From IMG/VR virus record IMGVR_UViG_2897369580_000002: DNA of 40,110 nucleotides; one strand, given 5' to 3'. The DNA comes from a virus. Taxonomy: Duplodnaviria; Heunggongvirae; Uroviricota; Caudoviricetes. Each line of letters starts with the position of its first letter. Positions within the stretch are counted from its first letter, which is position 1. This document shows, piece after piece, positions 5,725 to 36,845 of this stretch. Made by a program: the position numbers and the translations under genes. Below the pieces are notes generated by a model. It saw only the letters and a list, made by a program, of their open reading frames with translations, searched no databases and was not told where the DNA came from.

Positions 5725-5741
5725 ATTACCTTTCAGGTAAT
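5725..5741. promoter_or_regulatory. palindrome ATTACC-N5-GGTAAT (TTACC-N5-GGTAA family, copy 1)
   Basis: ATTACCTTTCAGGTAAT, perfect 6-bp arms; in divergent region between tailspike and the LexA-box gene. Confidence 0.6.
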
Positions 5742-16762: not shown

Positions 16763-19233
16763 CAGAACCCACCAACAGTAAGGCGAGGAATAACGGCAAG
16801 AACAGACAGCGGCAACGGATCAAGCTGACGGATTTTTACACGTCCGTTTTTGCCCCAGTTACTGTCCAGTTTCACTTCTACTTTTCCGGTAGCATCATCA
16901 ACAGGATCATCGTAGAACTCGAATTCACGCTGTGGATATTCGTACCATTTGCCGCCGGGCGTAGTCGCCCAGATGCCGCGGCTGGCATTCACAACCAGAG
17001 TAACGGAGGGGATCACCTGTTTTTTGTCCAGCAGCGTTTCCTGTCCGTTAATGTTGATATCCAGTGTTTCGAATTCAGCAGTTATTGGCAGGCCGATGTG
17101 CACAACAGCCCCCGGAGATTCCAGCGTGACGGCACCTCCGGAAACAACTTTCTGTGGTTCCACGTTCGCATCAGAGAGAATGTTTACGGTCTGGCCTTCA
17201 AGATGAGACAGGCCTCCAAATGTCCGGCGCGCCATCTGCCAGTTCGTGGTGGCCACATTCCTGAGGGATGGCGGGACGTTCCTGTTAGCACGAACCACTA
17301 CAGCGGTGTTGCTGGTTACAGAAATAATGTCGCAACGTAATTCTTTTGACACTTCATCGCCAGTATCAGGATCAGTTCCGGTATAAGGGAACTGTAGTTG
17401 CGCACCGACATCACTACTGGTGAAGTACGCACCACCAGAAACACTGATTGTATATTCCTCGCGGTAATCCCATTCGCCAGAACCACCAGTGATGATCATC
17501 GTTCTGTCAGACGTATTTCTTCCATCATAGCTAAGGCCAGAATCAACAAAGAAAGCATCTTCATCGCTGGTAAATAAACGGCTGGACAGTCGCTCGATGT
17601 ATCTCACTGTTTGCCCGTTAACGGTTCGGTTAACGACGAAATACACCGCATCTTCATTGCCTTCACTGATACTGCATGTGCTTTCATATTTTCCGGTACT
17701 GGATTGTGGTGCCCATGCAAAAACCTGCTGATCACGCAAATAGGTCATCACCAGTAATTTACCGTCATCACGAATGCAGAAGGCGCTGGAGTAAGGGACA
17801 ATAGAGAAGCACCAGTCAACAATGCTGTGCTTCTGAAAAAGATGATTGGCAAGGATGGTCAGGTCGTTCCCCTGATAGCCGTCAACATCGAATGAGTAGG
17901 CCAGATCACGGACAACACTGCCTTTCTCCTGGACGAACAGAGCAATATTCGCCACGGCAATTGGTGGGACATTGCTCGAGCCATTTGATCCCTGAGAGCT
18001 GAATGCAAATGATGATGGGGTAAGCACTTTGTTCTGGTCGCCAGTGATGACGTACTCACCTCCGGAAGTCAGCGCCACCAGCGAACCAACATCAATCAGG
18101 TGACGGATCTCATTAACCTGACGCCCGGCATAGGTGTAGATAATTCTGTCGTCATCCTGCGTAGGGTTGCTTTTGCCAAAATCCTTATAATCCCCGGTAC
18201 GGCTGGCCCAGATAGTCTGAGGAAACGCAGTCGATGCGGCGAAGTAAAGACGTTGTTGATAATAAACAACAGTGCCAGGATAACCATTAACACTGTTCCA
18301 GGCATATTTAGCCCATTTATAGCTGGCATTATCCTCGCCAACTACCTGCGAAGGGATATAGGAAATCACCTCGGCAGTTGCAGTAGTTCCATTTGCAGCA
18401 GAGATACGGGCAATGCCAAAACCACTGTGCAGATACTCCCACTCAATGCCGGTATCATCATCACCGGATCCGCCCCAGCCATCCCATGATGTGCCTTCTG
18501 TATGCGAAGGGCGCAAAGTGCCTGTTTTGCCTACTGTAACGGCGCGATAGTAGTTACTGTCTGCACGGCGAATATCGCCAATTGACGTACTCTTACTGGT
18601 TTCCCATACCGGCACAGAATCCACTGCAGGCTGTTCCAGATAGAACAATTTGCCTACCTGCTCCGCGCCAAAAATAGAGGCGCTTGCCGTTAGCGTAATT
18701 GTCCCGGTGCTGGCGCTGGCATAAACCGTCACTGACTCGTCAATATTGATATCTTCAAATGGCCCGTTCTTCGTTACCACATCAACCAGTTGCCAGTTGT
18801 CATGCGCATAGCGGCGCAACTCTTTCGGCGGGTATGCCGGATGAACCAGCGTAAGCACGTCTGCGCTTTGCGTGAATTTAATTCGGAACAGATCGGCTTC
18901 AGTATATGGCGTGGAAATTTCATAAATAACATTGCTGCTGTTCAGCACCAACGCACCATCTTTGATAACGCGCATGTACTGGTGTCCGAACTCCAGAGCA
19001 TAAGTCTGAACCGTCGAGAACTGGAACGGGATCAGGCGGCATTTCCGATTTGGATATTTGGCGGCACCGACAAAACGCGTACCAGGTCGATTCTCAACGC
19101 CGCCATACTGCCGCACGATAAAGTTATCGCACTTGCGCAATGCCACCTGGTACTTCGCCATGTCGATACGTCCGTACAACGACGGTCCAATCTCACCACC
19201 AGCAAAGCTGGGCTGGATCCAACTGATAGCCAT
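16762..19233 (-). CDS. large virion structural protein (tail hub/tube candidate)
   Basis: 823-aa ORF, ATG overlapping upstream stop; position between head-completion genes and internal proteins. Confidence 0.5.
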   Translation of the reverse strand: MAISWIQPSFAGGEIGPSLYGRIDMAKYQVALRKCDNFIVRQYGGVENRPGTRFVGAAKYPNRKCRLIPFQFSTVQTYALEFGHQYMRVIKDGALVLNSSNVIYEISTPYTEADLFRIKFTQSADVLTLVHPAYPPKELRRYAHDNWQLVDVVTKNGPFEDINIDESVTVYASASTGTITLTASASIFGAEQVGKLFYLEQPAVDSVPVWETSKSTSIGDIRRADSNYYRAVTVGKTGTLRPSHTEGTSWDGWGGSGDDDTGIEWEYLHSGFGIARISAANGTTATAEVISYIPSQVVGEDNASYKWAKYAWNSVNGYPGTVVYYQQRLYFAASTAFPQTIWASRTGDYKDFGKSNPTQDDDRIIYTYAGRQVNEIRHLIDVGSLVALTSGGEYVITGDQNKVLTPSSFAFSSQGSNGSSNVPPIAVANIALFVQEKGSVVRDLAYSFDVDGYQGNDLTILANHLFQKHSIVDWCFSIVPYSSAFCIRDDGKLLVMTYLRDQQVFAWAPQSSTGKYESTCSISEGNEDAVYFVVNRTVNGQTVRYIERLSSRLFTSDEDAFFVDSGLSYDGRNTSDRTMIITGGSGEWDYREEYTISVSGGAYFTSSDVGAQLQFPYTGTDPDTGDEVSKELRCDIISVTSNTAVVVRANRNVPPSLRNVATTNWQMARRTFGGLSHLEGQTVNILSDANVEPQKVVSGGAVTLESPGAVVHIGLPITAEFETLDININGQETLLDKKQVIPSVTLVVNASRGIWATTPGGKWYEYPQREFEFYDDPVDDATGKVEVKLDSNWGKNGRVKIRQLDPLPLSVLAVIPRLTVGGF

Positions 19234-31630: not shown

Positions 31631-32416
31631 TTACTTGATAAATCCTGCCGCCTTTCCCCGCCTGTATTCCTCCATCAGCCACTGCGCCGGTGTTATTCCC
31701 CCAAGGGTGGCGGCGTTAGGCATGCACCCGAAACTTCGCCCTGGTGGATGGTAAACGTCTCTCCCTGTGTCCGGAGGCGTACTCATGGGCTCTGGCTTTG
31801 CCTGTATGCTGATCACCGGATCGGGTATCTGCTGTCCGGAAGCCACCTTTTTCGCCCAATCATCGAGCAGCCTGCGTGCGTGTTTCTCAACCTCAATCTC
31901 GCTAAGCTGGCGCTGATACATTGCACGGCGGGTATCACATACGACCCAGTACATAACCGGATGTCGCCACGGGAATCTTTCGGGACCACCAGGATATAAA
32001 CTTTTTTCCTTGCTGTACCGGTGAAACTCCGCCATCACATCGTCAATGGTGACGCCAAGAACCATCTTGCTGTCTTTGCACCACTTGATAAATTGCCCTG
32101 GAGACGGCCAGAACGGAGATTCACTGGCGCGGGCGTGGCGCATACCAGCAGAAACCTGTTCACGGGTTCGGATCCCCCCTTCGGCAAACGCAGCAATCCA
32201 CTGCTGTTTTGCAGCAACTTCCTGCTCTGGCGTCTTCAGGTTGGTTACCACTGCCGCCGGAAACAGTTGTTTCAGCTGTTTAAAAAGGGCATCAACAAGC
32301 CTCTCTGCTGACATGTTCACCACATTGTCATTGTTGACGTACTGATGCTCATAACCTGACATGCGAGAAAGGGCTTCTCCGTCACGGTTTTGTATCGCGG
32401 TAAAAACGTTGTTCAC
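31631..32416 (-). CDS. replication protein P-like (helicase loader)
   Basis: Matches recalled lambda P motifs (FWPSPGQFIKWC vs FLPSPGQFVAWC; GIRTREQVSAGMRHAR vs GITTMEQVNAGMRVAR); likely GTG start at 32416 with RBS GGGAGG overlapping the O-like stop. Confidence 0.75.
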   Translation of the reverse strand: MNNVFTAIQNRDGEALSRMSGYEHQYVNNDNVVNMSAERLVDALFKQLKQLFPAAVVTNLKTPEQEVAAKQQWIAAFAEGGIRTREQVSAGMRHARASESPFWPSPGQFIKWCKDSKMVLGVTIDDVMAEFHRYSKEKSLYPGGPERFPWRHPVMYWVVCDTRRAMYQRQLSEIEVEKHARRLLDDWAKKVASGQQIPDPVISIQAKPEPMSTPPDTGRDVYHPPGRSFGCMPNAATLGGITPAQWLMEEYRRGKAAGFIK

Positions 32417-33204
32417 AAGAAATCCTCCCATGCTTCAGGGCTGTTCCAGTGCGGAACGTTGTTATCAGGTAATGTTGATTGCTTCTGTCTGCTAATCTGC
32501 AGCCGCCTTGCCAGCTTCTGCTCCCACTGTGCCTGATGGTATGCCTTACCCTCAGCCATCCAGTAAATTCTGAACTCTGCAAGTTCCTGTGCCGTTGGCA
32601 GACTGTCCAGGTAGATCCCCTGCAATGAGCTTTTCCGAAGAAAGTCATCTGATGGCTGCCATTGTTCATGCATGACAAATTTGCCTAATTGCCCTGGCCC
32701 ACCAGGAGGAACAAAGTTATTCATCACGGCGTTGTTTGCGCCGGGGTCATGAGGCACAGAATCCCCGCTTTTTGTCCTGCTCTCCCTCTCTTGGTTAAAT
32801 GACTGGTTATATGACTGGTTCTGGATCCCGTTTTTGGGATCATTCAACATCCCGTTTTTGGGTATATTCCCGTTTTCGGTAACATTACCGTTTTCGGGTT
32901 CATTGCCCCCCTCCCGGTTGCCTTTAATGTTCCCGTTTTTGGTTATATTAAGAGAGAAAACCCGCACTCTTTTTGTCGCTCCCTTTCTCTCTCCGGTATC
33001 TGAAATAAGCCCCATTTTCATGAGCGATATAAGCCCGGCCTGCACGGTTTTTTTATTCAGGCAAGTGTCTTTAACGAGGCGTTCTATGCTGGGGTAGCAG
33101 AGGTTATATTCATCGGCTCTGTCAGCCATCGAGAGCAGTATGAGCTTTAATGATGAGCTACCTGGATCTGTCTCCCAGGCCCAATCTGTTGCATGTCTGC
33201 TCAT
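32413..33204 (-). CDS. replication initiator (lambda O-like) with internal iterons
   Basis: ATG with RBS GGAG; N-terminal winged-helix-like region; central repetitive peptide (NGNIKGN..NGNVTENGNIPKNG) encoded by iteron repeats; upstream of P-like gene. Confidence 0.65.
   Translation of the reverse strand: MSRHATDWAWETDPGSSSLKLILLSMADRADEYNLCYPSIERLVKDTCLNKKTVQAGLISLMKMGLISDTGERKGATKRVRVFSLNITKNGNIKGNREGGNEPENGNVTENGNIPKNGMLNDPKNGIQNQSYNQSFNQERESRTKSGDSVPHDPGANNAVMNNFVPPGGPGQLGKFVMHEQWQPSDDFLRKSSLQGIYLDSLPTAQELAEFRIYWMAEGKAYHQAQWEQKLARRLQISRQKQSTLPDNNVPHWNSPEAWEDFL
32825..32946. repeat. iteron array (candidate origin of replication) inside the O-like gene
   Basis: Five direct repeats of about 16-18 bp with core CCCGTTTT(T/C)GG at 32826, 32850, 32869, 32888 and 32931. 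Confidence 0.65.
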
Positions 33205-33570: not shown

Positions 33571-33801
33571 TCATGAGTAGAAGAAGTATGCCAGTTCTGC
33601 TTTTGAGCGCAACCATTGTCTTGTTTTACAGGCTTTAAAAAGCCCATTCATCAATACTTTACCTGGCATTTTGCGCTTACCTGTTAAGTGAGTCTGGATA
33701 TAGTGACTCGTCGTTCCGGCTTCCTGTGCGAAGGCTTCACGCTCATCCGGAGTAAGTGCAAGCCAGTGCTTTTTGAAATCGAAATGTCCGTTATCGCTCA
33801 T
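33571..33801 (-). CDS. Cro-like small HTH regulator (first gene of rightward/early-replication operon)
   Basis: 76 aa, divergent from the repressor gene; HTH-like segment EAFAQEAGTTSHYIQTHLTG. Confidence 0.5.
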   Translation of the reverse strand: MSDNGHFDFKKHWLALTPDEREAFAQEAGTTSHYIQTHLTGKRKMPGKVLMNGLFKACKTRQWLRSKAELAYFFYS

Positions 33802-33837: not shown

Positions 33838-33868
33838 TCACCCATAAGGTAACAAAAATCAAGGATAG

Positions 33869-33883
33869 TTACCTATGAGGTGC
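33869..33883. promoter_or_regulatory. degenerate TTACC-N5-GGTGC palindrome (copy 9)
   Basis: GTTACCTATGAGGTGCA at 33868-33884. Confidence 0.4.
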
Positions 33884-33885
33884 AT

Positions 33886-33900
33886 TTACCCGTTGGGTAA
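33886..33900. promoter_or_regulatory. palindrome TTACC-N5-GGTAA (copy 10)
   Basis: TTTACCCGTTGGGTAAT at 33885-33901, between divergent Cro-like and repressor genes. Confidence 0.55.
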
Positions 33901-33955: not shown

Positions 33956-34540
33956 ATGAAAAGTATCCAGGACGTCCGCAGGCAAAATCTCAACGACTTG
34001 ATCGACCGTGAATTCAATGGTGTTCAGACGCGGATGGCAGAAAAACTTGGAACTCAGGCAAATCTGGTAAACCGCTGGGCTCTTGGCAAGAAGGTTATCG
34101 GCGACCAGGTTGCGCGAAAAATTGAAGCTGCCGCCAATAAACCACGTAACTGGCTTGATATCGATCGCTCGCTTTCTCAGGAAGGTTTTCAGCCTGTCGG
34201 CCCAAGCGACATTGGTCAGCTGGCGGCTCACAACCTGGAACGCTGGATGAGCGAAAGCCGCGACCTTTCAACACAGGGAAAACTTCACCGCGCATCCGGC
34301 GTCGCCCAGGTGACAATCAGCCGCCTGTTAAACAATGAGGTCAGCGTTTCCATTTCCACCCTGGAGAATGTTGCATCCGCATTCGGGCGTCACGGCTATG
34401 AATTACTGATTCACCCGCACGACCCTGCGACCATCAACTATGACCGCTCGCGCTACGCATTGTTACCCGAAACCGAGAAAGCAAAGATCGAAAGTTATAT
34501 TGAATTTGTCATCAACCAGAACGAAAAAAACAAACAATAA
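33956..34540 (+). CDS. prophage repressor candidate with tandem HTH domains, no autocleavage domain
   Basis: Two HTH-like regions (QTRMAEKLGTQANLVNRWALGKK and GKLHRASGVAQVTISRLLNNEVSVS); no Ala-Gly / Ser-Lys peptidase S24 signature seen; own terminator. Confidence 0.55.
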   Translation: MKSIQDVRRQNLNDLIDREFNGVQTRMAEKLGTQANLVNRWALGKKVIGDQVARKIEAAANKPRNWLDIDRSLSQEGFQPVGPSDIGQLAAHNLERWMSESRDLSTQGKLHRASGVAQVTISRLLNNEVSVSISTLENVASAFGRHGYELLIHPHDPATINYDRSRYALLPETEKAKIESYIEFVINQNEKNKQ

Positions 34541-34849: not shown

Positions 34850-35149
34850 ATGAACGTTAATCAGCAGAAAAATCTTCAAAAAATCATGCTGGCATTCGAC
34901 AAGGACTACCGCCTGTCAGAACAGCTATATGACCGACAAGTTGAACTGATCGAGAGCATCCGGCTTCATCAACTGGCCTCAACTTTTGACGCTGTAACAG
35001 GCAAAGGAGTTCGCCAGGAAGTGCTGGAGGCAGCTAAAGACAGCCATGAGTTCGAAGAACTTATGGATGCCTACCGGCGCGAGGCAATGGCAATTATCGC
35101 CCGCTGGGATCTGGCGGATCGGATTGATGGGCAGAGGGAAGCGGCATGA
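34850..35149 (+). CDS. hypothetical early protein
   Basis: ATG at 34850 with strong RBS GGGAGGG (ORF-track start 34835 lacks an RBS); 99 aa. Confidence 0.55.
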   Translation: MNVNQQKNLQKIMLAFDKDYRLSEQLYDRQVELIESIRLHQLASTFDAVTGKGVRQEVLEAAKDSHEFEELMDAYRREAMAIIARWDLADRIDGQREAA

Positions 35150-35967
35150 AACCGGGAATTTATTTCGACATCAGCAACGAAGACTACCACGCCGGTGACG
35201 GCGTGAGTAAGTCGCAACTGGACATGGTTGCCAAGAATCCGGCGCTTCTTAAATGGGTTCAGGCAGCACCAGAAGACGAAGAGAAAAAGTCTGCACTGGA
35301 TATGGGAACCGCATTGCACTGTCTGCTTCTGGAGCCTGGAGAATTCGACAAACGCTTCATTGTTTCACCGAAGTTCGATCGTCGGACAAAACAAGGTAAA
35401 GCTGACGAAGAAGCATTTCTTCGTGATGTGGCGGATATGGGTATTACGGTACTTGATGTCGAGCAGTGGCGAAAACTGGAGCTGATGCGTGATAGCGCAA
35501 TGGCTCATCCGGCGGCACGCTGGATGCTGGAAGCACCTGGTTACTGCGAAGCATCAATGTACTGGAACGATGAAGAGACGGGTGAGTTGTGCCGAATTCG
35601 TCCAGACAAATGGCTGAACGAGCACAACGTGATCGTCGACGTGAAAAAGGTTGCAGATATGGACCGTTTTGCACGCCACATCGAGGAATTCCGCTACCAC
35701 GTGCAGGACGCAATGTACCGCGAAGGCGCAATGAGGGTTACTGGTCAGCCGCATGGTTTTTTCTTTCTTGCCGTCAGCGAAAGCATTGATTGTGGTCGGT
35801 ATCCGGTACGCGTGTTCGAGCTGGATGCGCCAGATGTCGATGCCGGGCACGCTCTGTTCCGCCGGGATCTGAATACCTATCACGAATGCCGCATCAACGA
35901 TGAATGGGGCGGAGTGGAAATTATTAAACGCCCTGACTGGGCACGTAAACAGGATATGTACGTATGA
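35146..35967 (+). CDS. PD-(D/E)XK family exonuclease (RecE-like C-terminal domain type)
   Basis: N-terminal GIYFDISNEDYHAGDGVSKSQL and Asp/Glu/Lys pattern typical of phage exonucleases paired with RecT; ATGA overlap with upstream gene. Confidence 0.6.
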   Translation: MKPGIYFDISNEDYHAGDGVSKSQLDMVAKNPALLKWVQAAPEDEEKKSALDMGTALHCLLLEPGEFDKRFIVSPKFDRRTKQGKADEEAFLRDVADMGITVLDVEQWRKLELMRDSAMAHPAARWMLEAPGYCEASMYWNDEETGELCRIRPDKWLNEHNVIVDVKKVADMDRFARHIEEFRYHVQDAMYREGAMRVTGQPHGFFFLAVSESIDCGRYPVRVFELDAPDVDAGHALFRRDLNTYHECRINDEWGGVEIIKRPDWARKQDMYV

Positions 35968-36845
35968 GCAATGATATCGCAATCACATCACAACCAGGCG
36001 CAACTGTAGGCACTGCTGCGGCAATCTTCAGCCCCGAGGGCATGAATCAACTGGTGCGTTTCGCTGAGTTGATGTCACAAAGCAAAGCGACTGTACCGAA
36101 ACATCTTGAAGGCAAACCTGCCGATTGCCTGGCGGTGACCATGCAGGCGGCACAGTGGGGAATGAACCCTTTCGCCGTGGCGCAGAAAACGCATGTGGTA
36201 AACGGAACGTTAGGCTACGAAGCACAGTTGGTAAACGCGGTCGTATCCTCTTCCAGCCTGCTAGCGACACGCCTGAATTATCGCTGGAGCGGTGACTGGT
36301 CGAATGTTAACGGCAAAACAGATAAATCACCGAATCTGACGGTAACTGTGTCAGCAGTCCTTAAAGGAGAAGCAGAACCACGTGAGCTTACCATCAGTAT
36401 GGCGCAAGCCGGAGTGCGTAACTCTCCATTGTGGGAACAGGATCCGCGCCAGCAACTTGCCTATCTTTGCACGAAACGATGGGCTCGCCTGCACGCTCCT
36501 GATGTACTTCTTGGTGTTTACACCCCTGACGAATTACAGGAAACGGCACCGCGCGTTGAGCGAGACATTACTCCGCAAACAACTACTGCTGCGGGAATGA
36601 ACAGTCTGATCAACGCTAAACCAGTGAAAAAGCCTGATGAGCAAACGCGTAAAGCGGATAGCCGTGATCCAGAAGAAATGCTGATGGCCTTTACCAGCGC
36701 AGCGATGAATTACAGCACTGTCTCCGAACTGGATAAGGCTTACAAATACATTGCACAAAAACTTTCAGATGATGACGAACTGCTGGCAAAAGCCACCGAC
36801 GTTTACAGCGTTCGTCGGGAAGAATTAAACGAAACATCTATGTAA
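35964..36845 (+). CDS. RecT-family single-strand annealing recombinase
   Basis: Conserved core CLAVTMQAAQWGMNPF...VNGTLGYEAQL; immediately downstream of and overlapping the exonuclease gene. Confidence 0.75.
   Translation: MSNDIAITSQPGATVGTAAAIFSPEGMNQLVRFAELMSQSKATVPKHLEGKPADCLAVTMQAAQWGMNPFAVAQKTHVVNGTLGYEAQLVNAVVSSSSLLATRLNYRWSGDWSNVNGKTDKSPNLTVTVSAVLKGEAEPRELTISMAQAGVRNSPLWEQDPRQQLAYLCTKRWARLHAPDVLLGVYTPDELQETAPRVERDITPQTTTAAGMNSLINAKPVKKPDEQTRKADSRDPEEMLMAFTSAAMNYSTVSELDKAYKYIAQKLSDDDELLAKATDVYSVRREELNETSM

Follow-up and report, generated by a model that had tools for sequence, protein, structure and literature searches.

In phage lambda, the iterons of the replication origin lie inside the gene for the initiator protein, an arrangement that belongs to textbook knowledge. 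P22 and phage L have likewise been proposed to carry iterons within the initiator gene, and six TGTCCAACGGA repeats have been described as the putative origin in gene 18 of phage L (PMC8022706). Another related system is the DopC/DopE pair, an O-like and a P-like protein domesticated in Cellvibrionales and some Oceanospirillales, and the authors report that dopC contains no iteron-like sequences and is not an origin (Brezellec et al. 2017, PMC5509034). In addition, the C-terminal domain (CTD) of DnaT forms filaments on single-stranded DNA (ssDNA), for which parallels with DnaA have been drawn by the authors (PMC13377028). In the present study, we analysed a stretch of 40,110 bp (hereafter the window) from an E. 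coli phage or prophage of the phiV10/epsilon15 type (Uetakevirus), and in particular five direct repeats in the gene encoding its replication initiator. These repeats are very probably iterons bound by the phage's own initiator and, together with an adjoining array of 12-mers, would constitute a theta origin embedded in the initiator gene. This putative origin would work like the origin of lambda (ori-lambda), with an initiator that lies outside the Pfam lambda-O family; the lambdoid type of origin is already known, and this origin has been unannotated before. Indeed, no origin is annotated in the initiator region of the phiV10 RefSeq record.

The core of the repeat, CC(A/G)AAAACGG on the minus strand and CCGTTTT(T/C)GG on the plus strand, is present in five exact copies in the window, all located at 32828-32942 on one strand, whereas approximately 0.15 copies would be expected by chance from a simple calculation in which a 10-mer with one two-fold position is sought in 40 kb on both strands. 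When one mismatch was allowed, only two extra core sites were observed, scattered at 16844 and 27972, against a random expectation of 4.9, and the array is the sole local family of direct repeats with at least three copies in the window. A first-pass annotation, made from the sequence alone, had placed five direct repeats in 32825-32946, and these were confirmed by both the sequence and the repeat search. The core proposed there, CCCGTTTT(T/C)GG with a leading C, describes four of the five copies and fails in the copy at 32887, which has ACC, and the proposed spacing of 19-24 bp was not borne out: the units start at 32825, 32849, 32867, 32885 and 32930 on the plus strand, with spacings of 24, 18, 18 and 45 bp. 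The array (32824-32945) falls between residues 87 and 128, the inter-domain part of the initiator, and the location of the repeats inside the coding sequence of an NG-rich linker was again as claimed, all five cores being in one reading frame and encoding (P/T)(K/E)NG on the minus strand. In the window core, the third codon positions are fixed as C, A and C, the last one being G or T, and two first positions vary (A/C and A/G). Within the 45-bp gap, CCGGGAGGGG is in register, 25 and 20 bp from the neighbouring iterons, with CCTAGATGGG at this place in phage PAS61, and might perhaps represent a decayed sixth iteron. The scan for promoters and terminators gave background-level counts, and a terminator-like match at 32835-32854 was rejected, as it consists of the iteron palindrome and the next T-run.

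The comparison of homologous loci provided the evidence on what is conserved in this array. The sample included 84 loci encoding a homologous N-terminal domain (N-domain, 40-87% identity) from Gamma-, Beta- and Alphaproteobacteria and Desulfovibrio, comprising four phages (PPompW, Vibrio phage H20, Edwardsiella phage GF-2 and Acinetobacter phage AP22) and 80 bacterial genome loci; these loci are non-independent, many being from Acinetobacter, and the repeat pattern recurs in every clade. In the 330 nt past the N-domain, the best 10-mer (at most one mismatch) reached a mean of 4.45 copies, compared with 1.7-2.2 in three control segments taken upstream, further downstream and from the N-domain itself (Mann-Whitney p = 3e-41), and at least three related repeats were observed at the same place in 75 of the 84 loci. 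The copies occupy more than one reading frame in 62 of these 75 repeat-bearing loci, and the spacing among the homologues peaks at 17 (66 cases), 24 (49), 22 (45) and 18 nt (15). Moreover, the residues encoded in the relatives differ radically (PKNG, PKIG, PIYG and PKFG), and CCC-W6-GGG is retained. Because the frames differ among the homologues, and because the peptide changes while the DNA core stays, the iteron repeat is selected as DNA rather than as peptide. The core variants differ by N-domain lineage: for example, enterobacterial and Vibrio loci have AAAAAC, many Acinetobacter loci have AACAAT or AACGTT, AAAAGT is present in others, and the iterons of Marinomonas and Pseudoalteromonas have CCCCC/GGGGG arms.

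The unit has the form of a dyad. Over the non-redundant loci, the consensus is the 16-bp sequence GTCCC-AAAAAC-GGGAC, in which 5-bp inverted arms surround an A-tract. Sites of the form CC-N6-GG with an A/T-rich centre were observed 4.6 times per 330 nt in the linker, compared with 0.38 in the controls, and the three positions outside CC/GG are complementary in 42%, 68% and 60% of the 392 sites, where 25% would be expected by chance. These dyad sites suggest that the initiator binds as a dimer. For comparison, the annotated iterons of lambda, read directly, are ATCCCTCAAAACGAGGGA, ATCCCCTAAAACGAGGGA, ATCCCTCAAATTGGGGGA and ATCCCTCAAAACAGGGGG.

A second repeat, omitted in the first-pass annotation, abuts the iterons at 32792-32823 and consists of the 12-mers TGGTTAAATGAC, TGGTTATATGAC and TGGTTCTG; phiV10 has one additional 12-mer. 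Among the homologues, C(A/G)GAAYC is located within a few bases after the last iteron in 53 of 60 loci. In 38 non-redundant loci, the frequency of GAAYC in the 45 nt past the last iteron was 2.45, where the remainder of each open reading frame (ORF) would predict 0.078, and the units are spaced by 12 nt in 30 cases and by 13 nt in 20. As 13 is not a multiple of three, the GAAYC element is therefore also read in different frames. The iterons in these 38 loci are followed by DNA with 60-62% A+T, the ORF as a whole having 54% (Wilcoxon p = 6e-8), and beyond the GAAYC array many loci have an A-run or a stretch that contains GATC. In the window, a single other 40-bp stretch of the initiator gene is less stable than the 12-mer array, the intergenic DNA nearby being less stable as well, and a strong strand asymmetry extends over 32730-32940 (AT skew -0.45 to -0.56). 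The array at 32792-32823 is a candidate for an unwinding element, for half-sites, or for a second or single-strand recognition element, and its position is the counterpart of that of lambda's unwinding region.

The strongest argument for a functional equivalence with the module of lambda is provided by Edwardsiella phage GF-2. Its initiator has this N-domain, approximately five CCCAAAATTGGG iterons and a 12-mer array, and from TCGTCCGAGAATTCTGACGAATCCTCAGAC onward the sequence aligns with the right ori arm of lambda, the C-terminal domain (C-domain) being 62% identical to lambda O over 144 residues. In other words, the N-domain, iterons and 12-mers in GF-2 hold the exact position that the N-domain, iterons and A/T-rich tract hold in lambda, and this shared position argues for the functional equivalence of the two modules, which look interchangeable in nature. 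The claim of a lambda-like iteron origin within the initiator gene, made in the earlier annotation, is consistent with this chimera and gains further support from the frame-independent repeats of the homologues, the linkage to the N-domain, the dyad form and the lambda-like order of elements.

The initiator combines two domains in the Pfam comparison, HTH_36 at residues 18-67 (E 1.7e-10) and DnaT at residues 176-244 (E 1.1e-15). In the AlphaFold2 model, the N-domain (mean pLDDT 87) consists of four helices and a beta-hairpin wing. At the other end, 86 residues (172-257) align with residues 85-170 of E. coli DnaT (E 6e-21; 9zbt, 6aep, 4ou6 and 2ru8, phmmer against PDB). The C-domains of the repeat-bearing loci are DnaT-like in nine, lambda-O-like in one and of other types in 72. 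SPN1S and Tyrion, Uetakeviruses that share only the DnaT-like C-domain and have another N-terminus, showed no comparable repeat cluster, and a search for repeats of their own in these C-domain-only relatives gave two-copy pairs at chance level in SPN1S and none in Tyrion. The repeats follow the N-terminal DNA-binding domain, independent of the type of C-domain.

A P-family gene follows the initiator gene in all nine cases that combine the N-domain with a DnaT-like C-domain, and also in Tyrion, and is absent in SPN1S. In Salmonella phage SPN1S (locus L005, initiator at 1048-1863), a DUF1064 gene follows directly, with no P-like gene. The origin and the route of helicase recruitment of SPN1S, whose initiator gene also has another N-terminus and no iteron cluster, must differ from those of the window. 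The tails of the initiators also vary: the last ~13 residues of the window initiator, PHWNSPEAWEDFL (32413-32455), are common to initiators with close P-like partners (49-86% identity; L010, L091 and L159), and a different acidic tail, of the LD..W.DD type, is found in L006, L143, L144, L148 and L155, whose P-like partners are distant (27-33% identity). The tail of the initiator of SPN1S, the phage without a P-like gene, is DnaT-like. The C-terminal tail of the initiator may be a P-contact peptide.

Herein, we propose a model for the initiation of replication in this phage, in which we infer the steps of binding, melting, ssDNA capture and helicase delivery. The initiator would be translated from the early rightward operon, and its N-terminal winged helix would bind each ~16-bp dyad, probably as a dimer. 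With five or six adjacent sites filled, a nucleoprotein complex resembling the "O-some" might be formed, and the strain from this complex would melt the adjacent, A/T-richer 12/13-mer element. The clustered C-terminal DnaT-like domains would then capture the exposed single strand, and the lambda-P-like protein, encoded immediately downstream, would deliver the host DnaB helicase. As the iteron array would concentrate the DnaT-like domains beside the 12-mers, capture of the melted strand by these domains is reasonable to assume. We also considered a more specific version, in which the initiator is a phage-encoded, DnaA-like two-step machine: the iteron-bound winged helices template a filament of their tethered DnaT-CTD domains on one strand of the GAAYC 12/13-mers, sequence-specific iteron binding replaces the localisation by PriA/PriB on which cellular DnaT relies, and the 12/13-mers are a sequence-specific recognition element (ssDNA or half-sites) and not merely A/T-rich. 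This version is tentative and, on balance, unlikely. The 12/13-mers are also present with non-DnaT C-domains (GF-2, H20 and AP22) and would therefore have to be read by the N-domain or through the DNA structure, which is a difficulty for the DnaT filament.

Several observations weigh against an iteron origin at this place. Because the five copies in the window share one frame, the window alone does not separate a DNA element from a pure peptide repeat, and the exclusion of the latter depends on the homologues. In 336 of the 392 dyad sites, it is the coding strand that carries the A-tract, a bias that codon constraint rather than function could partly explain. The 12-mers of the window have ~63% A+T, as counted from the sequence, and are more stable than several intergenic stretches nearby. 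A Foldseek search of the N-domain model against PDB returned only generic winged helices of the MarR/ArsR/Fur type, none with E <= 0.001 and no specific initiator family. The minimum of the cumulative GC skew at ~33-34 kb was dropped as evidence for an origin, since it coincides with the switch in transcription direction (divergent transcription) and is not independent support. Finally, the searchable literature contained no experiment that shows binding or initiation, either in this phage or in any member of the N-domain family, and a full-text search, whose incomplete coverage makes an earlier description possible, gave no account of this iteron family, of the phiV10/epsilon15 origin or of iterons with phage initiators of the DnaT type.

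Three other explanations of the repeats were weighed against the iteron origin. Plasmid iterons also act in copy control, and the repeats might be true initiator sites that serve control (autoregulation, titration or handcuffing, or a transcription roadblock), with opening elsewhere, for example in the A/T-rich intergenic DNA at ~33.45-33.5 or 31.5-31.6 kb. Near the replication genes, DNA stability is indeed lowest in intergenic stretches and not in the gene, which fits this explanation; however, neither a second iteron cluster nor a single consensus copy is present near those intergenic regions, the GAAYC 12/13-mers and the rise in A/T are found immediately beside the iterons in the 38 non-redundant loci, and the module of GF-2 is joined directly to the right ori arm of lambda. 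A role in control alone is thus improbable. Direct repeats are also found at pac and partition sites, and the binding of the initiator in this phage is predicted from sequence, so that a host factor or another phage protein might bind the repeats for packaging, partition or recombination. Against this, the repeats travel with the initiator N-domain through numerous genomic contexts and always keep their position within the gene, in hosts that range from Acinetobacter and Vibrio to Sphingomonadales and Desulfovibrio, and the core variants differ between N-domain lineages. Neither a host factor nor an unlinked phage protein would easily account for such tracking of the N-domain lineage across hosts, and we consider this explanation very improbable.

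The least credible explanation is that the repeats are a by-product of a (P/T)(K/E)NG peptide linker made by slippage, with no role as DNA. In its favour, the shared frame of the window copies yields a linker that is rich in Asn and Gly and probably flexible, and slippage of a coding repeat would produce the observed changes in copy number, which come in whole units of 18 or 24 bp. Nevertheless, the mixed frames of the homologous loci, with spacings of 17 and 22 nt, and the retention of the DNA core despite the radical change of the peptide are not expected for such a linker; the third codon positions are more conserved than the first, the dyad symmetry would be meaningless for a peptide, and the domesticated DopC is reported to be without iteron-like sequences (PMC5509034).

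The number of iterons varies in natural populations. Viral contigs whose N-domain is 99-100% identical (n = 74) have 3 to 9 cores with a mode of 6, the five copies of the window being the second commonest state, and database proteins of 263-311 residues, otherwise ~100% identical, vary solely in how many PKNGMLND units they contain, with up to eleven among the matches listed. This octapeptide corresponds to the 24-bp unit of iteron 4, the unit that varies in number among the relatives. The overall range among near-identical prophages and phages is 3-11 copies, and the alleles with an intact ORF change by whole, frame-keeping units of 18 or 24 bp. The protein search with the N-domain returned mostly truncated or frameshifted short proteins, and the frameshifted ones were excluded from the structure alignment. 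Many database entries of the initiator end or shift frame within the array, such as a 119-residue form (48 member sequences) and a 97-residue form (62), and in P0005 and P0009 the iterons are read in another frame. These entries may reflect errors of sequencing or assembly where the A5 runs occur, or else real decay of prophages. The series of 3-11 iterons in near-identical initiator genes offers a natural means to study the effect of copy number on origin function. In addition, phiV10-type (Uetakevirus) phages and a class of prophage that is very common in E. coli are assigned a probable replication origin, and the results provide a searchable signature, an HTH_36 N-domain followed by GTCCC-A5C-GGGAC dyads and then GAAYC 12/13-mers, that would mark prophage origins across Proteobacteria.

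The features of the locus are collected in Table 1.

Table 1. Positions of the initiator gene, its partner gene and the predicted origin elements in the 40,110-bp window.
Feature	Position	Strand	Basis
Initiator gene, 263 aa: N-terminal winged helix, iteron-encoding linker, C-terminal DnaT-like domain	32413..33204	-	ORF and Pfam
N-terminal winged-helix coding region, aa 1-87, presumed iteron-binding domain	32944..33204	-	AlphaFold2 model
Iteron 1 (first in gene direction), TAACCAAAAACGGGAA	32930..32945	-	Sequence and repeat search
Candidate decayed iteron, coding strand CCGGGAGGGG (as CCCCTCCCGG in the 45-bp gap)	32908..32917	-	Read from sequence
Iteron 2, AACCCGAAAACGGTAA	32885..32900	-	Sequence and repeat search
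Iteron 3, TTACCGAAAACGGGAA	32867..32882	-	Sequence and repeat search
Iteron 4, TACCCAAAAACGGGAT	32849..32864	-	Sequence and repeat search
Iteron 5, GATCCCAAAAACGGGATC, perfect 6-bp inverted arms	32824..32841	-	Fits family consensus GTCCC-AAAAAC-GGGAC
12-nt unit array right after the last iteron, coding strand CAGAACCAGTCATA TAACCAGTCATT TAACCA	32792..32823	-	TRF period 12, 2.4 copies
Purine-rich tract adjoining the 12-mers, coding strand AAGAGAGGGAGAGCAGGACAAAAAGCGGGG	32765..32791	-	Read from sequence; role inferred only
C-terminal DnaT-CTD-like coding region, aa 172-257	32434..32691	-	phmmer against PDB
Lambda-P-like helicase-recruitment gene	31631..32416	-	Pfam Phage_lambda_P (PF06992), E 1.5e-56

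The surroundings of the initiator gene are those of phiV10. The 792-bp stretch of the gene has 95-99.7% identity with genes of Escherichia phages BP9, EC.W1-9, phiv142-3, PAS61 and phiV10, and its phiV10-type counterparts carry the labels "replication initiation protein" or "primosomal protein I". The GTG start of the P-like gene and the stop of the initiator gene overlap as GTGA, with the same arrangement in phiV10, and the P-like gene downstream is predicted to be translationally coupled to the initiator gene. Upstream of the initiator gene, two small ORFs and a divergent repressor-like gene with two helix-turn-helix motifs are present, in a layout as in phiV10. Elsewhere in the window, an exonuclease-like ORF (35146-35967) and a RecT-like ORF (35964-36845) are separate with a 4-nt overlap, and the phiV10 record has one RecE/RecT fusion of 1761 nt at the matching place. 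A 15-bp palindrome, TTACCT-N3-AGGTAA, gave 18 matches (at most two mismatches) in the window, compared with 0.88 expected by chance. Exact copies are located at 5726, 7159, 25030, 31517, 31579 and 34598, copies of the palindrome lie in intergenic DNA, and three degenerate ones at 33838-33900 separate a cro-like gene on the minus strand (33571-33801) from the repressor-like gene on the plus strand (33956-34540). These copies look like operator or regulator sites dispersed across the genome.

Compared with ori-lambda, the window is alike in the order of its elements, namely N-domain, iterons, an element that is a candidate for easy melting in the window, C-domain and P-like gene. In both, the iterons are located in the linker-coding part between the N-terminal DNA-binding domain and the C-terminal domain, the unit is a dyad of the form TCCC..A-tract..GGGA (ATCCCTCAAAACGAGGGA in lambda and GATCCCAAAAACGGGATC in the window), and the iterons are followed towards the C-terminal side by a strand-asymmetric element, in the window a putatively less stable one, and then by a P-family gene with an overlapping start. 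The CCC/GGG arms are 6 bp apart in the window and 9 bp apart in lambda, and the neighbouring element is a GAAYC 12/13-mer array in the window but a plain A/T-rich run in lambda; moreover, the origin of the window is predicted from sequence comparison. The earlier description of the initiator as O-like holds for function and position but not for family, as the protein combines HTH_36 with a DnaT CTD. Its N-domain matches HTH_36 and not Phage_rep_O (PF04492), which lambda O matches with E 5.7e-36 in the same library, a BLASTP comparison of the window initiator with lambda O gave nothing significant, and the C-domain is a DnaT CTD, the lambda type being present only in the relative GF-2.

The P22-like gene 18 origins resemble the window in that direct repeats within the initiator gene, followed by an A/T-rich stretch, are read as the origin. 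Unlike those of the window, the repeats of phage L are 11-bp abutting units that lack the CC-N6-GG dyad, and the initiator is paired with a DnaB-type helicase instead of a P-like protein. The gp18 of phage L, with its similar-looking repeats, was considered as a member of the family and rejected, as there was no sequence similarity and no HTH_36 match. With E. coli DnaT (primosomal protein I), the likeness is limited to the C-terminal 86 residues; the N-terminal half of the window protein is a sequence-specific winged helix and an iteron-encoding linker, not the N-terminal oligomerisation domain of DnaT, and the gene is part of a phage early operon with a P-like gene. The label "primosomal protein I" is thus a partial-match annotation that is misleading for this protein, and the present results correct the "primosomal protein I / DnaT" annotation. 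The fusion of an iteron-binding domain to a DnaT CTD, which forms filaments on ssDNA, suggests a route from origin recognition to strand capture.

The same domain composition is found in DopC/DopE, which also combine an HTH_36 N-domain and a DnaT C-terminal motif with a following Replication-protein-P homologue (PMC5509034). The protein search with the full-length initiator listed 120 matches, all near-identical E. coli prophage proteins, with no DopC-like protein among the matches listed. The window gene differs from dopC, compared here through the description of its authors, in having five iterons and the 12-mers. We therefore propose that the phage gene is the non-domesticated, origin-bearing counterpart of DopC, providing a natural contrast to the domesticated DopC/DopE, which are reported to have lost the iterons.

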